In this document: positions 17,376 to 24,292 of the stretch, piece after piece
Layout of the letters: each line of letters begins with the position of its first letter
Numbering within the stretch: the first letter of the stretch is position 1
Source of the DNA: Prochlorococcus marinus str. NATL2A
GTDB taxonomy: Bacteria > Cyanobacteriota > Cyanobacteriia > PCC-6307 > Cyanobiaceae
Direction of reading: 5' to 3'
DNA: 32,000 bases
Assembly: GCF_000012465.1 (NCBI RefSeq)
Contig: NC_007335.2
Location: 330,001 to 362,000 of the forward strand
Translations under genes and position numbers: made by a program
Notes under the pieces: generated by a model
What the model saw: the letters and a program-made list of their open reading frames with translations, nothing else
Told to the model about the DNA's origin: nothing
Database searches by the model: none

Positions 17376-18422
17376 ATGAATTCAAAGGCAAGTAATGAGA
17401 CGATTCTTGTAACAGGAGCCGCAGGTTTTATTGGCGCGGCTTTAGTAAAAGCTCTGCTTAACTTGAATTTTAAAGTTATAGGTATTGATAACTTAAATGA
17501 CTATTATTCTACGTCCTTAAAGAGATCCAGATTAACTGAAATTGAAAAAGTTTCCACGGTAAATGGAGAATGGTTTTTTTATGAGATTCCTATAGAAGAT
17601 AATAAAGTATTGCAAGACATAATTAATAGATACAATCCACAAGTTTTTGTTCATCTTGCCGCACAAGCGGGTGTTCGTTATTCAATAACCAACCCTGCTG
17701 CATATATACAAAGTAATTTGGTAGGTTTTGCAAATGTATTGGAAGGATGTAGGCAGAATCAAATACCTCATTTGATTTATGCATCTAGCAGTTCTGTTTA
17801 TGGTGGCAATAAAAATCTTCCTTTCTATGAAGAACAAGCCGTAAATCATCCAGTTAGTTTGTATGCAGCCACTAAGAAATCTAATGAATTAATGGCCCAT
17901 ACCTATAGCCACTTATATGATTTACCAACAACTGGACTACGATTCTTTACCGTTTATGGCCCATGGGGAAGACCCGATATGGCTCCAATGATTTTTGCGA
18001 GATCAATTTTAAATAATGAGCCAATCCAAGTATTTAATTACGGTAAAATGCAAAGGGATTTTACTTACATCGATGATGTAGTAGAGGGGATAATTCGTTG
18101 TTGCTTCAAGAAAGCAAGTATTGATGATGACTTTAATCCTCTTGTTCCTAACCCTTCAACTTCATCAGCACCTTATAGGATTTTTAATATAGGTAATTCA
18201 CGTCCAACTCAACTCACATATTTTATAGAGTTATTAGAGAAGAATTTGGGAAAGAAAGCTATAAAGAATTTTCAACCTATGCAGCCGGGAGATGTAGTTT
18301 CTACTGCTGCAAGAATGGACTTGCTTAATTCGTGGGTAGATTACAAACCCATAACATCCATAGAAAATGGTATTAAATTGTTCTCTGAATGGTACTTAGA
18401 CTATTTTAAAAATACTTTTTGA
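17376..18422 (+). CDS. NAD-dependent nucleotide-sugar epimerase, UDP-glucuronate 4-epimerase-like
   Basis: 348 aa. VTGAAGFIGAALVKALL, HLAAQAGVRYS, YASSSSVYG, YAATKKSNELMAHTYSHLY, RFFTVYGPWGRPDMA. This is the CapI/WbnF/GAE family signature. Confidence 0.8.
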   Translation: MNSKASNETILVTGAAGFIGAALVKALLNLNFKVIGIDNLNDYYSTSLKRSRLTEIEKVSTVNGEWFFYEIPIEDNKVLQDIINRYNPQVFVHLAAQAGVRYSITNPAAYIQSNLVGFANVLEGCRQNQIPHLIYASSSSVYGGNKNLPFYEEQAVNHPVSLYAATKKSNELMAHTYSHLYDLPTTGLRFFTVYGPWGRPDMAPMIFARSILNNEPIQVFNYGKMQRDFTYIDDVVEGIIRCCFKKASIDDDFNPLVPNPSTSSAPYRIFNIGNSRPTQLTYFIELLEKNLGKKAIKNFQPMQPGDVVSTAARMDLLNSWVDYKPITSIENGIKLFSEWYLDYFKNTF

Positions 18423-18455
18423 ACACTGGTTTTGATTTTTCTGTTTATTTAAAAC

Positions 18456-18686
18456 TTAGGCTAGTCCTAATAATTTAATTCTGAAGCGAGCAACATTTTT
18501 TGATTGGATTGGATTTGAAATTAGAAAAGGATGATTTTTAATCTTCTCAAAAGCTATTTCAATCTTTTCATCTATTTTTATATCTTTATTATTTCCTAGA
18601 TCACAATCTTTCCAAGCTGCATCAAATGCCATTGCAAAACTATCAGCATTATTATATAAATTTTCACTAGATGTTTCTAAATTCAT
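18456..18686 (-). CDS. Hypothetical small protein
   Basis: 76 aa ORF convergent with the epimerase gene. No recognisable motif. It sits at the edge of the gene-poor region. Confidence 0.3.
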   Translation of the reverse strand: MNLETSSENLYNNADSFAMAFDAAWKDCDLGNNKDIKIDEKIEIAFEKIKNHPFLISNPIQSKNVARFRIKLLGLA

Positions 18687-18955
18687 ATGAATAGAATCAA
18701 ATGTTTAAATCATTTTAACTCCTTAATGGGATATTAAAAATGACTAAGTCTTTGTAATATAGTTAATCATTATTAATTTTGCTCGATAAAGCCTATCGCT
18801 GTATAACTTATCCTTAATATGCTAACTAATGCGTTTGGAGATAAATGATAGTAAAACCAACATAAATTATTATTATTGTTTAAAATAAATTTGATTACCA
18901 GCTTTTTATTTTGCCAGATATTAACGATTTTTTAGTCTTACTTATTATTATCTTC

Positions 18956-18998
18956 ATTTTAATTGTCAACTTCTTTAGAAGAAGTTGACAATTAAAAT
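18956..18998. repeat. Perfect 43-nt palindrome (20-bp arms, 3-nt loop)
   Basis: ATTTTAATTGTCAACTTCTT tag AAGAAGTTGACAATTAAAAT. All 20 positions pair when checked base by base. Confidence 0.85.
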
Positions 18999-19102
18999 CA
19001 TCAAATCTTTTAACGTTTAAAAATAAGATGAGTTATTATTTAAAAATTATCAGCTTTAGTGAAAAGATTTATATATTTAACTTGTAGTATTTTTAAATAA
19101 AA

Positions 19103-19270
19103 CTACGAGTCTCTAAGAGTGGTTCCAAGTCTCAAAGCTAAAACCCCTGCAAAAATAACCATTAAAAATGATATACCAGCAAGATCAGGTGAATTTATAC
19201 CTAGACCTGATGAGAAATCTACTTTGGAAAGATCAAATGTACTTTGAACTCCGATTAAAAGGTTCATCAT
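19103..19270 (-). CDS. Candidate small membrane protein (55 aa)
   Basis: Hand translation: MMNLLIGVQSTFDLSKVDFSSGLGINSPDLAGISFLMVIFAGVLALRLGTTLRDS. It has one C-terminal TM helix. The tail (...AGVLALRLGTTL) loosely resembles PsaM-type peptides. Below the ORF-track size cutoff. Confidence 0.3.
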   Translation of the reverse strand: MMNLLIGVQSTFDLSKVDFSSGLGINSPDLAGISFLMVIFAGVLALRLGTTLRDS

Positions 19271-19528
19271 CTCTAAACTACTAATTTCTTTTATGCTAAC
19301 TCAAGATTGAAATGATCTTTTATTTTTTGAGCTTCTAGTATCAACTCTTATGCAGCTTTGTAATAATTAGGATTGGTCTGCTTATTAACTGACGACTTAA
19401 ATGCCTTTAAGTTCTAAAGAATGGTTGAGTAGATTAAAAATCAAAAATTATTGCCAACTCTTTTCTAGGCATTAAAAAGCAACTTGTTGGAGGTGCTTTT
19501 TAATATTCAAATGTACATATTTGAATGA

Positions 19529-19553
19529 TGTCAGGACCCAGCTTTTAACTTGG
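19529..19553 (-). repeat. Decayed third copy of the tRNA-Phe 3' end (old att scar)
   Basis: TGTCAGGACCCAGCTTTTAACTTGG compared with TGCCAGGACCCAGATTTGAACTGG in the gene: 4 mismatches in 25. Preceded (about 19474-19500) by a degenerate copy of the terminator hairpin (AAAAAGCAAC...GGAGGTGCTTTTT). Confidence 0.45.
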
Positions 19554-19600
19554 TAGTTTCAAAGCAAAATCCTTAAAAAGTAACTATCGGGTGTTTTTGC

Positions 19601-19665
19601 TATTAAAAAAGCACCTATTAGGTGCTTAATAAATGGTGCCAGGACCCAGATTTGAACTGGGGACA
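19601..19665 (-). repeat. Direct repeat copying the tRNA-Phe 3' 32 nt plus its downstream terminator hairpin (distal att site)
   Basis: 19634-19665 (TGGTGCCAGGACCCAGATTTGAACTGGGGACA) is identical to 22470-22501. 19601-19633 matches 22438-22469 with 2-3 differences, including the AGCACCT/AGGTGCT hairpin. Confidence 0.85.
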
Positions 19666-19741
19666 ACTTAAAAAAATACTAAAAAAACACTATTTATGCC
19701 TGTGAAGACAGGACAAATTTCTAGATATGGTGCCTTCTCAA

Positions 19742-19765
19742 AAACTTCCATACCACTTCCATACC
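19742..19765 (+). repeat. 24-nt repeat (AA + 2x ACTTCCATACC), left copy. An inverted single 11-mer lies at 19813-19823.
   Basis: AAACTTCCATACCACTTCCATACC is identical to 22342-22365. GGTATGGAAGT at 19813-19823 is the reverse complement of the 11-mer. Confidence 0.85.
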
Positions 19766-20083
19766 AGTACAATTCTTTGGGAGTTGTTTTTCTTTTTTAT
19801 TTAAGAATCATTGGTATGGAAGTTCTGGGGATTTACTCACCTCAGCAGTTCCAGAAGAGTAAATAAGTTGTTAGTAGTCATTGATGGGTCCTTTGAGAAA
19901 AAGACTTACGAAAGAAAATCTTTCAAGTAGAAGCAAGCAATCAAATCATTAGCGTTGGAGTTTATACAGAAGAGTTCAGGTCAAAAGATCTTTAAGCAAC
20001 TTCAGGACACCAATCAATTTCAAGTATCCGCTGTTCTTTAGTAGTAAAATTGCAAGACCAAAAGAGATAAAAGGTAAGAGAAG

Positions 20084-21172
20084 GTGGATAGTTCTAGTCA
20101 AGAAAGAGAAGGAAAGAAAAAAATTATTGAAATAAAAACATTTGCAGTTCCATTTGCTTTAGGAGAAAAGCAAGAAAATCTTACTATTAAAACAAATACC
20201 CCCTCCAAACCTTCTAAAGAACAAATAATCAATCAAGCAATTCAATTTCATCTAAAAGGAAATATTCAAGAAGCAGCAAAATATTATCAACTGTTTGTAG
20301 AGCAAGGTTTCAAAGATCACATAGTTTTTTCTAATTATGGAGTGGTTTTAAAAAATCTAGCTCAGACACAAGACGCAGAATTGTCATATCGCAAAGCGAT
20401 TGAAATTAAACCTGATTACGCAGATGCTCATTACAATTTGGGAAACTTATTGAAAGAACTAGGCAAATTACAAGACGCAGAATTGTCATATCGCAAAGCG
20501 ATTGAAATTAAACCTGATTACGCAGATGCTCATTACAATCTTGGAATCATATTGAATGATCTTGGTAAATCACAAGAAGCAGAATTGTCATATCGCAAAG
20601 CAATTAAAATTAAACCTGATTACGCAGAAGCGCATTACAACCTGGGAATCATATTGAATGATCTTGGTAAAAGTGACCAAGCAGAATTGTCATACCGCAG
20701 AGCAATTGAAATCAAATCTGATTACGCAGATGCTCATTACAATTTGGGAAACTTATTGAATGATCTTGGTAAATCACAAGAAGCAGAATTGTCATATCGC
20801 AAAGCAATTAAAATTAAACCTGATTACGCAGAAGCGCATTACAACCTGGGAATCATATTGAATGATCTTGGTAAAAGTGACCAAGCAGAATTGTCATACC
20901 GCAGAGCAATTGAAATCAAATCTGATTACGCAGATGCGCATTTAAATCTGGGAAACATATTGAGAGATCTTGGTGAATTACAAGATGCAGAATTATCAAC
21001 TCGCAAAGCAATTGAAATCAAACCTGATAACACAGATGCGCATTTAAATCTGGGAAACATATTGAGAGATCTTGGCAAATTAAAAGACGCAAGATTATGT
21101 TCAGAAAAGATTATGTCTTTAAGGTCCTGGTCACTTGCTGGTTCATACAGTTTTAATTATGAGATGATATAA
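20084..21172 (+). CDS. Tetratricopeptide-repeat (TPR) protein with about 8 near-identical 34-aa repeats
   Basis: 362 aa, GTG start. Repeats of AELSYRKAIEIKPDYADAHYNLGxxLxxLGKxxx with a 102-nt DNA period. No catalytic domain is attached. Confidence 0.85.
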   Translation: MDSSSQEREGKKKIIEIKTFAVPFALGEKQENLTIKTNTPSKPSKEQIINQAIQFHLKGNIQEAAKYYQLFVEQGFKDHIVFSNYGVVLKNLAQTQDAELSYRKAIEIKPDYADAHYNLGNLLKELGKLQDAELSYRKAIEIKPDYADAHYNLGIILNDLGKSQEAELSYRKAIKIKPDYAEAHYNLGIILNDLGKSDQAELSYRRAIEIKSDYADAHYNLGNLLNDLGKSQEAELSYRKAIKIKPDYAEAHYNLGIILNDLGKSDQAELSYRRAIEIKSDYADAHLNLGNILRDLGELQDAELSTRKAIEIKPDNTDAHLNLGNILRDLGKLKDARLCSEKIMSLRSWSLAGSYSFNYEMI

Positions 21173-22148
21173 GATTGATCTCATAATGCATAAGTTTGGT
21201 TAAGATCTTTGAGACTTCGTTGTCTATTAATTTAGACTCATTTATAACTTTATTTCTAATTGAAATATTTAACTGGAATATTTTCAATAAAAAATCTTGA
21301 GGGATATTGATATGATCAATCTTCCTAAGAATCTCATCAAAATATTCATACGGTAATCTCGGATGATTAACATCAGCGATCGGTAAACCCTCTAAAATGA
21401 TTTTTTTACCAGATCTTTCTATTTTCATAGAATCATCGTTAATACTCATCCCCTTGCAGACAATATGAATTCCAAGATCTTCAATATTTATTGACAAAGG
21501 AATTGAAAAAATTATGCTTTCTTCAGAAAAAAAACCTTGATAAAAAAAACGACTTAATGGACTAATTCTGCTATATGAATGTCTTAACTCACCATTTACA
21601 GCAGGATAATTAGGAGTGCTTATTCCATCCTTATTAGTAATAAAAGGAAAAGATCTTACTTTATGATTTACAAGTTCCACTATGGGAACGACAACACTAC
21701 TATTTTTAAACTTAAATACTCTAGCATTCAAAAATTGCTTTTTAATAACATTATTCCATGTCCCTTTATGCCTTTCGTCTATATCAACTAAAGCATATTT
21801 TTTAATTAATTCTTTTAAATTTGAATTAAATAAACTTAATCCCCTCTCAAATAATTCTGTTGTTTCTTTGCCGCCAGATCCCCATGAAAAGTTATCTTGG
21901 TAAAAATTAAAAAAATTTCTAATTTCCTGATTATATTCCTTATCTTTTTTAATTCTTAATTTATTATCTTCTAAATAAATATCGTCTTTTTTGATCATTA
22001 ACTTTGATGGAGTAAAAATTCTCGCTCTCAGACTTGGATTAACAGAAAAAATACCTCTTCCATATTCACCTTCCTTTTGAAATACATTATCTGCTACTCC
22101 GCCAAGTCTACGAAATTCAGAAAGTAAAAAATTCCAATTGTCGTCCAT
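21153..22148 (-). CDS. SET-domain-like protein (putative protein-lysine methyltransferase, Rubisco-LSMT-like architecture)
   Basis: W..LL.EF..LGG...(20 aa)..YGRGIFS...ARIFTPSKLMI, then VVPIVELVNHK and NGELRHSYSRISP. This resembles the GxG / NH / ELxxSY triad of SET domains. The ORF track starts at a TTG (22160). The ATG at 22148 (MDDNWNFLL) is more plausible. Confidence 0.45.
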   Translation of the reverse strand: MDDNWNFLLSEFRRLGGVADNVFQKEGEYGRGIFSVNPSLRARIFTPSKLMIKKDDIYLEDNKLRIKKDKEYNQEIRNFFNFYQDNFSWGSGGKETTELFERGLSLFNSNLKELIKKYALVDIDERHKGTWNNVIKKQFLNARVFKFKNSSVVVPIVELVNHKVRSFPFITNKDGISTPNYPAVNGELRHSYSRISPLSRFFYQGFFSEESIIFSIPLSINIEDLGIHIVCKGMSINDDSMKIERSGKKIILEGLPIADVNHPRLPYEYFDEILRKIDHINIPQDFLLKIFQLNISIRNKVINESKLIDNEVSKILTKLMHYEINLISSHN

Positions 22149-22341
22149 AAGAGATATCAATGCTACATGACTTATGTCTTCTCTTTAATCTAGTTGAACA
22201 CCAAGATTTAGAAAACTGGGTAAAGTTTGAAGCAAAACATCCAAACACCTTCGCTGGGATGTATCAGTTCTGGATTTCTAAAATGAATACCTGATTATTC
22301 ATAGAACATCATGGCAGTAATAATTCATTGATCTGATAGGG

Positions 22342-22365
22342 AAACTTCCATACCACTTCCATACC
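22342..22365 (+). repeat. 24-nt repeat (AA + 2x ACTTCCATACC), right copy
   Basis: Identical to 19742-19765, exactly 2600 nt away. Confidence 0.85.
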
Positions 22366-22441
22366 GTTTTTATAGATACTCAATTTGTGCCTTAACGAAC
22401 TTAAAACCCTGAAAACGCAACTATATTTTGTTTTGGGTATT

Positions 22442-22463
22442 AAAAAAGCACCTATAAGGTGCT
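22442..22463 (-). terminator. Rho-independent terminator immediately downstream of tRNA-Phe
   Basis: On the minus strand, an AGCACCT-tat-AGGTGCT hairpin is followed by TTTTTT. Confidence 0.6.
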
Positions 22464-22469
22464 CATTAA

Positions 22470-22545
22470 TGGTGCCAGGACCCAGATTTGAACTGGGGAC
22501 ACGGCGATTTTCAGTCGCCTGCTCTACCAACTGAGCTATCCCGGC
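22470..22545 (-). tRNA. trnF: tRNA-Phe (anticodon GAA), CCA encoded
   Basis: The reverse complement is GCCGGGATAGCTCAGTTGGTAGAGCAGGCGACTGAAAATCGCCGTGTCCCCAGTTCAAATCTGGGTCCTGGCACCA. It has a 7-bp acceptor stem, the anticodon loop CTGAAAA, and a GTTCAAATC T-loop. Confidence 0.95.
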
Positions 22546-22689
22546 TTTAAACCCTAATAATCTACCAATTCGTAAGTACCTTATTGAAAAATAAATTGAA
22601 ATCGCCTTATTTTTCTTTTGTCTAATTTCAAAGGTAATTTGAAAATCATGAAAATGCTAGCTTTCCAATGATTTTGTTGGAAGCAAATT

Positions 22690-22959
22690 TCATAACTTAG
22701 GAATAGCTTTGATCATCCTAACCAATGTTTTATGTGCATCTGAACAGTCTTGAAGAATATGATCGAATTTTATTTCTAATGTCTCGTCATCAATTTTAAG
22801 CTGAACAGCTTCTGGGGATAGGCTTATCATTTTTGCTGATTTAAAAGTTTTAATTTTTCCATAATATTTTGCATATGCATTGACAGCATCCTCATGGTCT
22901 TTGTTCATATGATTACATATTCTTGTACTTGACTCTTGGGTGATTGGCTCGGAGTTCAT
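22690..22959 (-). CDS. DUF2470-family protein (heme-oxygenase-like/HugZ C-terminal-type small domain)
   Basis: 89 aa with ICNHMNKDHEDAVNAYAKYYG, the HMNxDHxD signature of DUF2470. Confidence 0.6.
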   Translation of the reverse strand: MNSEPITQESSTRICNHMNKDHEDAVNAYAKYYGKIKTFKSAKMISLSPEAVQLKIDDETLEIKFDHILQDCSDAHKTLVRMIKAIPKL

Positions 22960-23056
22960 AAAATTTTTTTGTTAGTGATTTTAGAAACTTATTAATAAGA
23001 TAGATAGATTTAAAGAAATTCAGATTAAAAATTTTATAAAGAATTTAATCCTTTAT

Positions 23057-24292
23057 TCATAATAATCCCTGCAAAGCAATACTTGCTACTCCAGCAGCGG
23101 GGGGGGTGTTGCATATTTTTATTGGTATGCCAATTTCTCTTTCTCTTATTTTTTTCCAAGTAATATTTTTTGCACCTCCTCCAATAGTAATTATTTGCCG
23201 AGGTAAATCAGCTCCTAATTCATTAAGTTTTTGCCAGCCTCTTGCTTCTATTTTCGCTAACCCTTCAAATAATGCATGAAGATAAAGAGAATCACTGACT
23301 GGTCTTGGATCAAGTTTAGGTTGTAAATTTGGGTCATCTATTGGAAATCTTTCTCCTTGACTTGACAATGGAAGAAGGTTTAATCCTGATGATTTATTAG
23401 GATTTATTTGTTTGCTTAATTCTGCAATATATTCAAGATTAAAGAAGTCTAGTAGTATCGAAGCCCCTGTATTAGATGCTCCACCAGATAGCCAATTCCC
23501 TAACAATTTATGATTTGAAATACCTTTTCCCTCCAAGGGGTTATTTACAAATTTTTTAATTACTATTGTGCTACCAAGGATTGTTATCCCATCATTTTTA
23601 TTAGGGAAAGTAGCTAAAACCCCAGCATTAGAATCTGTAGTTCCTGCTATGACTTTAAGATTTTTTGGTAAACTTAATTCATCTGCTTTTTTAGTACATA
23701 CATTTCCCATTATTTGACCTGAAGGAATTATTTTCGGAAGACATTTTAACCATTTTAAATTTTGAAAATTTTCTGGCCATGAACTATTTGATATTTCCCA
23801 ACCCATCCTAATATTGTTACCTTCTTCCCCATACTCCCAATTATTTATAAGCCATCCACTAATCCAATCTGCTTGGTGCCTTAAGATTATTTCATTACCA
23901 TATAAGGCTAGAAGTTTTAGTGCTCTTCCAACACTTCCACTTACGCTTGATCCTGCACATTCTTTAGTAAATAGATTTCTTATCTCGTATGAATATTCCG
24001 AAAATGGTAAGAAATAAGGTAGGGCTTTCCCTAGAGGAACTCCATCTCTATTGCACGCTAGAAGTGTTCCAGAGGTTCCAGCTACTGAACAAGAAACCAA
24101 CTTTTCTTTGAGATCTCTTGGAATTTGTTGTATTAGAGTTTTGAGGCTATTTATCCAGTCTCCAGATATTTCTAGACCTTTAGAGTATTTTGTTGATGAT
24201 GTGAATAGTATTTTTTTTTTAACATTAATGATTGCAATCCTTACGCCTGATGTACCAAGATCTATACCAAGTACAAGAGAATTGTTTAACAT
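23057..24292 (-). CDS. FGGY-family carbohydrate kinase
   Basis: 411 aa. N-terminal LGIDLGTSGVRIA (actin-like ATPase phosphate-1 motif), AGTTDSNAG, and C-terminal ITIGGGAKN. Confidence 0.75.
   Translation of the reverse strand: MLNNSLVLGIDLGTSGVRIAIINVKKKILFTSSTKYSKGLEISGDWINSLKTLIQQIPRDLKEKLVSCSVAGTSGTLLACNRDGVPLGKALPYFLPFSEYSYEIRNLFTKECAGSSVSGSVGRALKLLALYGNEIILRHQADWISGWLINNWEYGEEGNNIRMGWEISNSSWPENFQNLKWLKCLPKIIPSGQIMGNVCTKKADELSLPKNLKVIAGTTDSNAGVLATFPNKNDGITILGSTIVIKKFVNNPLEGKGISNHKLLGNWLSGGASNTGASILLDFFNLEYIAELSKQINPNKSSGLNLLPLSSQGERFPIDDPNLQPKLDPRPVSDSLYLHALFEGLAKIEARGWQKLNELGADLPRQIITIGGGAKNITWKKIREREIGIPIKICNTPPAAGVASIALQGLL

Follow-up and report, generated by a model that had tools for sequence, protein, structure and literature searches.

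The bacterial SET-domain proteins that have been reviewed carry short, canonical SET domains that Pfam recognises, and many of them are secreted effectors that methylate host histones. SET enzymes of the Rubisco large subunit methyltransferase (LSMT) class are best known from plants and animals, and include pea Rubisco LSMT as well as human SETD3, which acts on His73 of actin, and human SETD6, which acts on Lys310 of RelA. Tetratricopeptide repeats (TPRs) accompany modifying enzymes in other described systems; in SMYD1-3 and Toxoplasma AKMT a TPR module shapes or selects the substrate site of the SET domain (PMC3105404), and in O-GlcNAc transferases of the GT41 type an N-terminal TPR superhelix recruits protein substrates. 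Here we analyse a 32,000-nucleotide stretch of the genome of Prochlorococcus marinus str. NATL2A (NC_007335.2, positions 330,001 to 362,000, hereafter the window), in which a TPR gene and a SET-like gene overlap tail to tail in a small islet next to a tRNA-Phe gene. No phototroph on Earth is more abundant than Prochlorococcus, whose island genes are mostly annotated as 'hypothetical'. We found that the SET-like gene encodes a predicted S-adenosylmethionine (AdoMet)-dependent SET-fold enzyme of the Rubisco-LSMT/SETD6/SETD3 class and that the TPR-SET pair is genetically coupled across many genomes.

Results

Predicted fold of the SET-like protein

The TPR gene occupies positions 20084-21172 on the forward strand (362 aa, GTG start, TAA stop), and the SET-like gene positions 21153-22160 on the reverse strand, encoding 335 aa from a TTG at 22160 or 331 aa from an in-frame ATG at 22148 and also ending in TAA; the 331-aa form matches the length of most homologues. 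The two open reading frames (ORFs) converge and share 20 nt at their stop ends (21153-21172), as an earlier, sequence-only reading of the window had stated. That reading had also pointed to an order of motifs, WNFLLSEFRRLGG, YGRGIFS, PIVELVNH and ELRHSY, all of which we located in the protein, and had guessed a SET enzyme of the Rubisco-LSMT type, which the searches below bear out. Both ORFs are real genes, since they have hundreds of homologues, the TPR gene matches Pfam TPR_1 with E = 3.7e-66, and the ratio of non-synonymous to synonymous substitution rates (dN/dS) of the SET-like gene against 13 homologues is 0.19-0.41, which indicates purifying selection. No terminator was found between the two genes, the only terminator-like hairpins being those of the tRNA, and transcripts that reach the stop codons are therefore antisense to each other at their 3' ends.

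As a single sequence, the 335-aa SET-like protein returned only noise against Pfam, NCBIfam and the sequences of the Protein Data Bank (PDB), and a profile of its close homologues alone (A1) had no match in the PDB. An exhaustive profile search retrieved 425 cluster representatives at 50% identity (300 at E ≤ 1e-10), most of them 330-350 aa long, in cyanobacteria and in Alphaproteobacteria such as Rhizomicrobium, a spread that the earlier remark on SET proteins being uncommon in bacteria understates. The source names retrieved for the family all label it hypothetical or leave it unnamed and no Pfam domain is on record for it, and a name look-up for the clusters of distant members gave no informative name. 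Upon aligning 101 diverse members (A2; mean column identity 27%), few columns are near-invariant, and these include G34, G36, R147, N165, H166, E191, Y196, G209 and F210. The A2 profile matched pea Rubisco LSMT in the PDB (E = 6e-4), followed by SETD6 and PTAC14 as the next SET proteins listed.

Using the A2 alignment, AlphaFold2 produced a model with a predicted local distance difference test score (pLDDT) of 96.1 and a predicted template modelling score of 0.91. When this model was compared with the PDB by Foldseek, the top 35 matches (probability 1.00, E from 7.6e-7 to 1.5e-4) were all Rubisco LSMT, SETD3, PTAC14 or SETD6, and the top 44 consecutive matches were SET enzymes, with SMYD2 and AKMT coming after the top 35. 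In a viral structure library, the significant matches were giant-virus SET proteins only. A model built from the shallow A1 alignment (pLDDT 67) had given consistent SET matches that were not significant (E ≥ 0.04), and it is superseded by the A2 model. The SET fold that the sequence-only reading had made dependent on profile or structure searches is thus returned by both.

The predicted structure begins with beta strands at residues 22-70, followed by helices at 78-145, a second set of beta strands at 148-195, which carries the NH and Tyr motifs, and a lobe at 201-334. The helical block at 78-145 lies between the two beta halves and resembles an iSET insert, and the C-terminal lobe contains a beta-rich subdomain at residues 216-263, so that in the predicted enzyme a helical iSET insert splits the SET core and a C-terminal lobe follows. 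The structural alignments with LSMT and SETD3 at full length extend over 405-470 columns. The lobe is the most divergent part of the family, with many matches covering only positions ~4-226, and the substrate-binding C-terminal domain of Rubisco LSMT (PF09273) was matched in Pfam neither by the SET-like protein nor by its family.

Cofactor and catalytic residues

In LSMT, the Arg and the Asn-His pair serve AdoMet binding and Phe224, Ile285, Tyr287 and Tyr300 form the lysine channel (PMC3105404, PMC7764450, PMC6400499); the Arg (R222, corresponding to R254 of SETD3) binds the carboxylate of AdoMet (PMC6400499), and Tyr287 is the universally conserved SET tyrosine (PMC3105404). We observe counterparts of these residues on the reverse strand of the window. 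The GxG motif G34-R35-G36, a predicted AdoMet-binding loop, is encoded at 22053-22061 (G34 in 91 and G36 in 98 of the 101 members), and R147-V-F149 at 21714-21722 aligns with R222-A-F224 of LSMT, with R147 present in 101 of 101. The SET 'NH' motif PIVELVNH (residues 159-166; 21663-21686) places E162 on D239 and N165-H166 on N242-H243 of LSMT, with N165 kept in 100/101, H166 in 97/101 and E or D at position 162 in 98/101. Finally, in ELRHSY (residues 191-196; 21573-21590) Y196 aligns with Tyr287, and both E191 and Y196 are found in 99/101 members; further along, position 208 falls on Y300, and the alignment continues over G301-F302 of LSMT. Judged by these alignments, the cofactor and catalytic residues are intact in the window protein.

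The Phe located two positions past the AdoMet-binding Arg contacts the substrate lysine by a cation-pi interaction in LSMT and SETD6, and is replaced by Asn in SETD3 (PMC6400499), where it is Asn256. The window protein carries Phe149 at this position, and across the 101 members the position is hydrophobic and never Asn (Ile 46, Phe 20, Val 18, Leu 7, Tyr 5), which argues for a lysine-type rather than a histidine-type enzyme. Lysine methylation is therefore the better guess for the predicted chemistry. A SETD3-like assignment as a histidine methyltransferase was considered and rejected, because the Asn determinant is absent (PMC6400499).

Conservation of the gene pair across genomes

We identified 18 SET-like genes in 16 Prochlorococcus and Synechococcus genomes, of which 17 face an intact convergent TPR gene with a 3' overlap of 9-44 nt, whereas the eighteenth, in Synechococcus (L016), faces a frameshifted TPR remnant that ends in the tail typical of its lineage. 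The co-occurrence of the two families, on which the sequence-only reading had staked its idea of a two-component module, is hence seen throughout this set. The pairs adjoin tRNA-Phe, tRNA-Ser and tRNA-Pro genes and are sometimes duplicated (L011, L015), and the pairing persists down to 29-31% identity in Synechococcus (overall range 29-91%). On an unrelated contig of 40% GC (L059) there is again a convergent TPR-only gene, with an overlap of 98 nt and with sulfotransferases on either side. The pairing is real and old.

Comparison of related loci shows how the site varies. One locus (L007) carries the same pair at the same tRNA-Phe site with 83% nucleotide identity. Another contig (L050, MDTG01015752.1) agrees with the window as far as 19378 and again from 22132 on, a 2,753-bp deletion of 19379-22131 that removed the TPR gene together with the partial tRNA copies and left only the first few codons of the SET-like gene; this contig had been a candidate for a pristine 'empty site', which we rejected because the retained codons mark it as a deletion derivative. 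A third (L047) has a divergent pair behind the same flank, with a SET-like protein 36% identical to that of the window.

The TPR partner and its relatives

The sequence-only reading had described the partner as a 362-aa pure TPR array; the length and the repeats hold, whereas 'pure' does not, given a 45-aa non-TPR head and a 26-aa tail. The head (residues 1-45, ending in KKKIIEIKTFAVPFALGEKQENLTIKTNTPSKPSK; 20084-20218, forward strand) is conserved. It precedes ~8 TPRs (eight Pfam TPR_1 stretches), which are encoded largely by a tandem DNA array of 7.1 units of 102 nt at 20368-21091 on the same strand, with one TPR per unit, 85% matches and no indels (Tandem Repeats Finder; repeat family D1). 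Head and repeats alike are lysine-rich, and the repeats are highly regular, ELSYRKAIEIKPDYA recurring among them. Among the loci, the partner varies in length from 172 to 493 aa.

The C-terminal tail RLCSEKIMSLRSWSLAGSYSFNYEMI (residues 337-362; 21092-21169, forward strand) is specific to the partners: every Prochlorococcus partner conserves it, TPR-enzyme fusions lack it, and the Synechococcus partners have a conserved tail of their own. The window copy lacks the terminal tail Lys (EMKLD). We rejected the possibility that its conservation is a by-product of the gene overlap, which covers the last 3-14 codons of the partner as against ~26 conserved tail residues. The identity of the tail tracks that of the SET-like protein (r = 0.90, Mantel p = 2e-4), indicating that both are inherited as a unit.

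Other TPR genes of the islands are longer and lack the tail, and they share the head and homologous repeats with 57-68% identity to the window partner. Their C-terminal domains are a sulfotransferase, a class-I S-adenosylmethionine methyltransferase, a 2-oxoglutarate (2OG)-Fe(II) oxygenase, or a region without a Pfam match. Head-sharing fusions of this kind occur at L001, L006, L008, L011 and L014, and the C-terminal domains without a Pfam match belong to proteins of 493, 578 and 633 aa. In two distant relatives (P0158, P0174) TPRs, a GT41 domain and a SET-like domain are fused in one protein. We examined nine independent contexts from outside Prochlorococcus and marine Synechococcus; a TPR-containing neighbour or fusion is clear in five of them, and one has a faint TPR match. 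In soil Alphaproteobacteria (Rhizomicrobium-like metagenome-assembled genomes), tandem SET-like paralogues lie near two TPR-sulfotransferase genes. The contigs L017, L020, L022 and L024, Rhizomicrobium-like and others, have a GC content of 56-62%; L022 also carries a tryptophan halogenase, and in L024 a 1,377-aa TIR-AAA-STAND-WD40 protein has as neighbours the SET-like gene and several ~340-aa genes that lack annotation. Overall, the SET pair looks like a split version of a recurring design that couples one TPR address module to interchangeable modifying enzymes.

A relic in the window bears on this design. Between the start of the SET-like gene and the tRNA-Phe gene, on the strand of the TPR gene, positions 22205-22294 encode the C-terminal ~30 residues of a TPR-methyltransferase fusion, ending in NWVKFEAKHPNTFAGMYQFWISKMNT* (tblastn; 65% identity over 26 aa to residues 700-725 of the 728-aa TPR-Methyltransf_31 protein of L006, E = 4e-9). 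The order in the window is therefore head, TPRs and tail on the forward strand, SET-like gene on the reverse strand and methyltransferase-end relic on the forward strand, which suggests that the inverted SET cassette sits where a fused methyltransferase warhead used to be.

The islet and its borders

The window has a GC content of ~31%, and all close homologues of the studied genes come from Prochlorococcus genomes or marine metagenomes. The islet, 2.7 kb in size, lies between core genes and has tRNA-Phe 3'-end repeats at both borders; on its left are phycoerythrin-region genes, two nucleotide-sugar epimerases and two small ORFs, and on its right the tRNA-Phe(GAA) gene, a DUF2470 protein, an FGGY-type kinase and MetK. 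The tRNA-Phe(GAA) gene that anchors it is at 22470-22545 on the reverse strand (ARAGORN; Rfam RF00005, 67.5 bits). The right repeat, which resembles a phage attachment (att) site, covers 22403-22501 and comprises the last 32 nt of the tRNA together with 67 nt of downstream flank, including the terminator hairpin at 22446-22464; it recurs as a direct repeat of ~100 nt at 19566-19665, with a duplicate terminator at 19609-19627 (repeat families D3/D4; 97% identity in the tRNA part and 81% in the flank). A third, older and decayed partial copy of the tRNA-Phe 3' end lies at 19521-19557 (73% identity), a sign that integration or duplication took place at the site at least twice in succession; this copy is 108 nt away from the left att-like copy.

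The TPR and SET-like genes are the only ORFs of at least 100 aa between the repeats, in agreement with their earlier description as the only substantial genes there. No integrase or other mobility gene is found among ORFs of that size between the repeats, and the islet is therefore at best a scar-bounded remnant and not an active element. A full target tRNA with partial copies at the flanks, a trait of tycheposons, is present here in the form of tRNA-Phe and two partial 3' copies, and this combination is a known signature of tRNA-anchored islands and past integrations in Prochlorococcus (bioRxiv 10.1101/2020.12.28.424599).

Just within each islet end we observe an exact 24-nt repeat built on two tandem copies of the 11-mer ACTTCCATACC, at 19742-19765 on the left (with an inverted copy at 19812-19831) and at 22342-22365 on the right, both on the forward strand, that is, two copies in the window against 0.01 expected. 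The corresponding 22-mer was found again in 30 marine metagenome contigs (L026-L055) and one IMG/VR contig; the contigs range from 27 to 52% GC, in most of the 30 the 22-mer is located ~40-150 nt from tRNA-Phe or partial tRNA-Phe 3' copies, and an inverted GGTATGGAAGT copy is often present. The tandem 11-mer probably serves as an att arm, a recombinase-binding site peculiar to the tRNA-Phe island. A 56-aa ORF at 19696-19866 on the forward strand covers the left 11-mer and its inverted copy, has no Pfam match and is probably not a gene.

Finally, in an Rfam scan of 18400-23100 the tRNA alone was matched, and a promoter scan was uninformative, as it gave 13 sites where 13.2 were expected. The AT-rich spacer between a 76-aa and a 55-aa ORF contains, at 18956-18998, a perfect inverted repeat of 20 bp whose arms, ATTTTAATTGTCAACTTCTT / AAGAAGTTGACAATTAAAAT, enclose a 3-nt loop.

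Discussion

We consider it probable, from the sequence comparisons and the predicted model, that the TPR and SET genes work as a single functional unit, namely a split, TPR-guided protein(-lysine) methyltransferase. The SET enzyme would transfer a methyl group to a lysine of a protein, and the TPR protein would be the substrate-selecting arm, binding the target through its conserved head and its TPR superhelix of variable length. The partner-specific tail would dock the enzyme, replacing the covalent link of the sister TPR-enzyme fusions and of the TPR-GT41-SET relatives. The target would probably be an intracellular protein, since by eye neither product has an obvious N-terminal hydrophobic signal peptide. 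The convergent 3' overlap would keep the two genes inseparable and, by forcing antisense 3' ends, may tie their expression together, and the system would evolve by expansion and contraction of TPR units and by cassette exchange at tRNA-anchored islands. That a TPR scaffold and a methyltransferase act on a target protein had already been proposed from the sequence; we infer the same, and the fusions and neighbourhoods strengthen the proposal.

Several observations weigh against this interpretation. The Pfam SET model PF00856 is matched by none of the 101 family members, even at E ≤ 1, and identity to LSMT-class structures is 9-13%, with global template modelling (TM) scores of 0.4-0.5. Because of these values, the SET-like family is, by profile and predicted fold, a new and unannotated family within the SET superfamily, closest to the LSMT class, its membership following from the profile-to-PDB match together with the fold. 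At position 208, which corresponds to the lysine-channel Tyr300 of LSMT, the window copy has Gln where 90/101 members have an aromatic residue (Tyr, Trp or Phe). Its lysine pocket thus has Phe149 and Tyr196 and a non-aromatic Gln208 with Tyr207 adjacent; this 'YQ' variant (21537-21542) occurs in 6 of 34 close homologues, most relatives having Tyr at position 208, and represents either a shifted aromatic, in which case the neighbouring Tyr207 may compensate for Gln208, or an altered pocket. In addition, the co-divergence of tail and enzyme could come from linkage alone, three of the nine contexts outside the picocyanobacteria have no TPR neighbour, and the company of sulfotransferases, oxygenases and halogenases is also typical of the tailoring of small molecules or peptides (PMC2938197).

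A broader scenario goes further and is speculative; we regard it as doubtful as a whole. According to it, marine picocyanobacteria and some Alphaproteobacteria would possess a combinatorial TPR-guided toolkit, with head and TPRs as the 'address' and swappable 'warheads' (SET, class-I methyltransferase, sulfotransferase, 2OG oxygenase, GT41), SET alone acting in trans and docking on the tail. Its diversity would come from the expansion of repeats and from the exchange of warheads at tRNA islands, and in phage-host conflict it would act on a common host or phage target and alter its post-translational state. The plastid and eukaryotic LSMT/SETD3/SETD6 class would have its prokaryotic root in the SET-like family. 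The methyltransferase relic beside the SET gene would then be the trace of a warhead swap.

The neighbourhoods are also the starting point of a competing explanation, in which the enzyme methylates an amine on a peptide-derived or other small-molecule product, being one of a set of exchangeable tailoring enzymes (sulfo-, methyl-, hydroxyl-, glycosyl-transfer), and the TPR proteins scaffold the biosynthetic assembly instead of selecting a protein. The neighbours and paralogous architectures comprise sulfotransferases, a class-I methyltransferase, 2OG-Fe(II) oxygenases, GT41, a glycosyltransferase and a tryptophan halogenase, and neighbourhoods of TPR-2OG dioxygenases, sulfotransferases and halogenases have been read as peptide or secondary-metabolite modification (PMC2938197); free lysine, a poor substrate of LSMT, is accepted nonetheless (PMC7764450). 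We consider this explanation unlikely, since the solved SET structures retrieved are all protein methyltransferases acting on Lys or His, the islet holds two genes only and lacks a synthetase or precursor gene, TPR arrays and GT41 are typically directed at proteins, and the variable C-terminal lobe is like the substrate-binding lobes of LSMT-class enzymes.

Alternatively, the TPR protein could itself be the substrate or regulated client, with the SET enzyme methylating lysines in the repeats or head of its partner and of the head-sharing fusions and thereby tuning their interactions. The lysine-rich, regular head and repeats (ELSYRKAIEIKPDYA), the presence of the head in many island TPR proteins and the tight co-inheritance of both genes fit this view. 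It is nonetheless improbable in our estimation, because the SET-TPR-GT41 fusions and the parallel with TPR-enzyme fusions are better accommodated by TPRs as a targeting arm, the wide variation in repeat number and sequence leaves no fixed target lysine evident, and the window copy is without the Lys at the tail end (EMKLD).

A phage-host conflict module, in which the TPR array senses a phage or host protein and the SET enzyme modifies it to block or tolerate infection, is compatible with the biochemistry that we favour. The hypervariable tRNA-anchored islands, with presence or absence and allelic replacement of the pair (deleted in L050, and replaced in L047 by an allele of 36% identity), the homogenised TPR array of varying copy number and the distant paralogue cluster adjoining a TIR-STAND-WD40 protein would agree with such a role, and a link between Prochlorococcus islands and coexistence with viruses has been made (Avrani et al. 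2011, cited in PMC12801897). We nevertheless attach little probability to it. PADLOC returned no match for the SET-like protein and only generic ones for the TPRs, neither tblastn against 50,697 phage records nor the Foldseek viral library yielded a phage homologue, with dN/dS below 1 there is no sign that the enzyme as a whole is under diversifying selection, and many family members reside in ordinary chromosomal contexts; the tblastn result also leaves a cyanophage origin unsupported.

It is very improbable that the genes are mere neighbours, or that the SET-like protein is a non-catalytic scaffold as its structural match PTAC14 is a structural subunit of the plastid RNA polymerase complex, with no functional TPR-SET partnership. 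In favour of this view, TPR genes are abundant in islands and could be adjacent by chance at a single locus, and 3/9 distant contexts are without a TPR neighbour. Against it, the convergent overlapping arrangement is found at 18/18 loci over 29-91% identity and three tRNA sites and again in L059, the specific tail occurs in partners only, gene fusions exist, and the catalytic and cofactor residues are near-invariant.

The split TPR-guided methyltransferase that we prefer predicts a TPR-SET complex, lysine methyltransferase activity and a methyl-proteome that depends on the pair, for which the natural deletion and replacement alleles (L050, L047) are usable as controls. A fold, an active site and a probable chemistry can now be given to a family of at least 425 sequence clusters, and the LSMT-class SET enzymes have a sizeable bacterial branch with a design of its own. 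If one TPR address module serves several modifying enzymes, protein modification would be a variable trait of ocean cyanobacteria that is shuffled horizontally. In the literature, we did not find an earlier description of the SET-TPR pair or of TPR-enzyme island proteins in Prochlorococcus.

Comparison with described systems

Pea Rubisco LSMT (PDB 1MLV, 1OZV, 1P0Y, 2H21) is the best match of the SET-like protein both by profile (E = 6e-4) and by structure (E = 7.6e-7). The likeness consists of the split SET core with its helical insert, the C-terminal lobe and the aligned residues R222/F224, D239, N242-H243, Y287 and G301-F302. In contrast to LSMT, the window protein is bacterial, ~110 residues shorter and only 11-13% identical, has no Pfam SET or Rubis-subs-bind match, and possesses a beta-rich C-lobe subdomain (216-263) and a dedicated TPR partner gene. 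SETD3 and SETD6 have the same LSMT-class fold, and their AdoMet-binding Arg and NH motif are kept (PMC6400499), yet both are without a TPR partner, unlike the window pair.

SMYD1-3 and AKMT, the next-best structural matches, combine a SET domain with TPRs in a different way. Their TPR-like domain consists of three degenerate repeats located in cis after the SET domain, whereas the window has ~eight canonical 34-residue repeats on a separate, convergently encoded polypeptide, and the window protein lacks their MYND or post-SET zinc module. GT41 enzymes follow the same logic of substrate recruitment, and in P0158 and P0174 a SET-like domain is appended to TPR-GT41; they transfer a glycosyl rather than a methyl group, and the window differs further in having one gene for the TPR array and another for the enzyme. 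The neighbourhoods of Iyer et al. 2010 keep the same company, namely a TPR-fused 2OG-Fe(II) oxygenase, sulfotransferases and a Trp halogenase, although neither a SET-fold component nor a TPR-only partner with a docking tail is among the systems described in the corresponding part of that paper (PMC2938197).

Finally, compared with the bacterial SET-domain proteins reviewed in PMC3980110, the window family is of the LSMT class, is invisible to Pfam, occurs in free-living phototrophs and soil Alphaproteobacteria, and is paired with TPRs. Overall, the two-gene arrangement with its dedicated TPR partner is a new form of the known theme of 'TPR plus modifying enzyme'.

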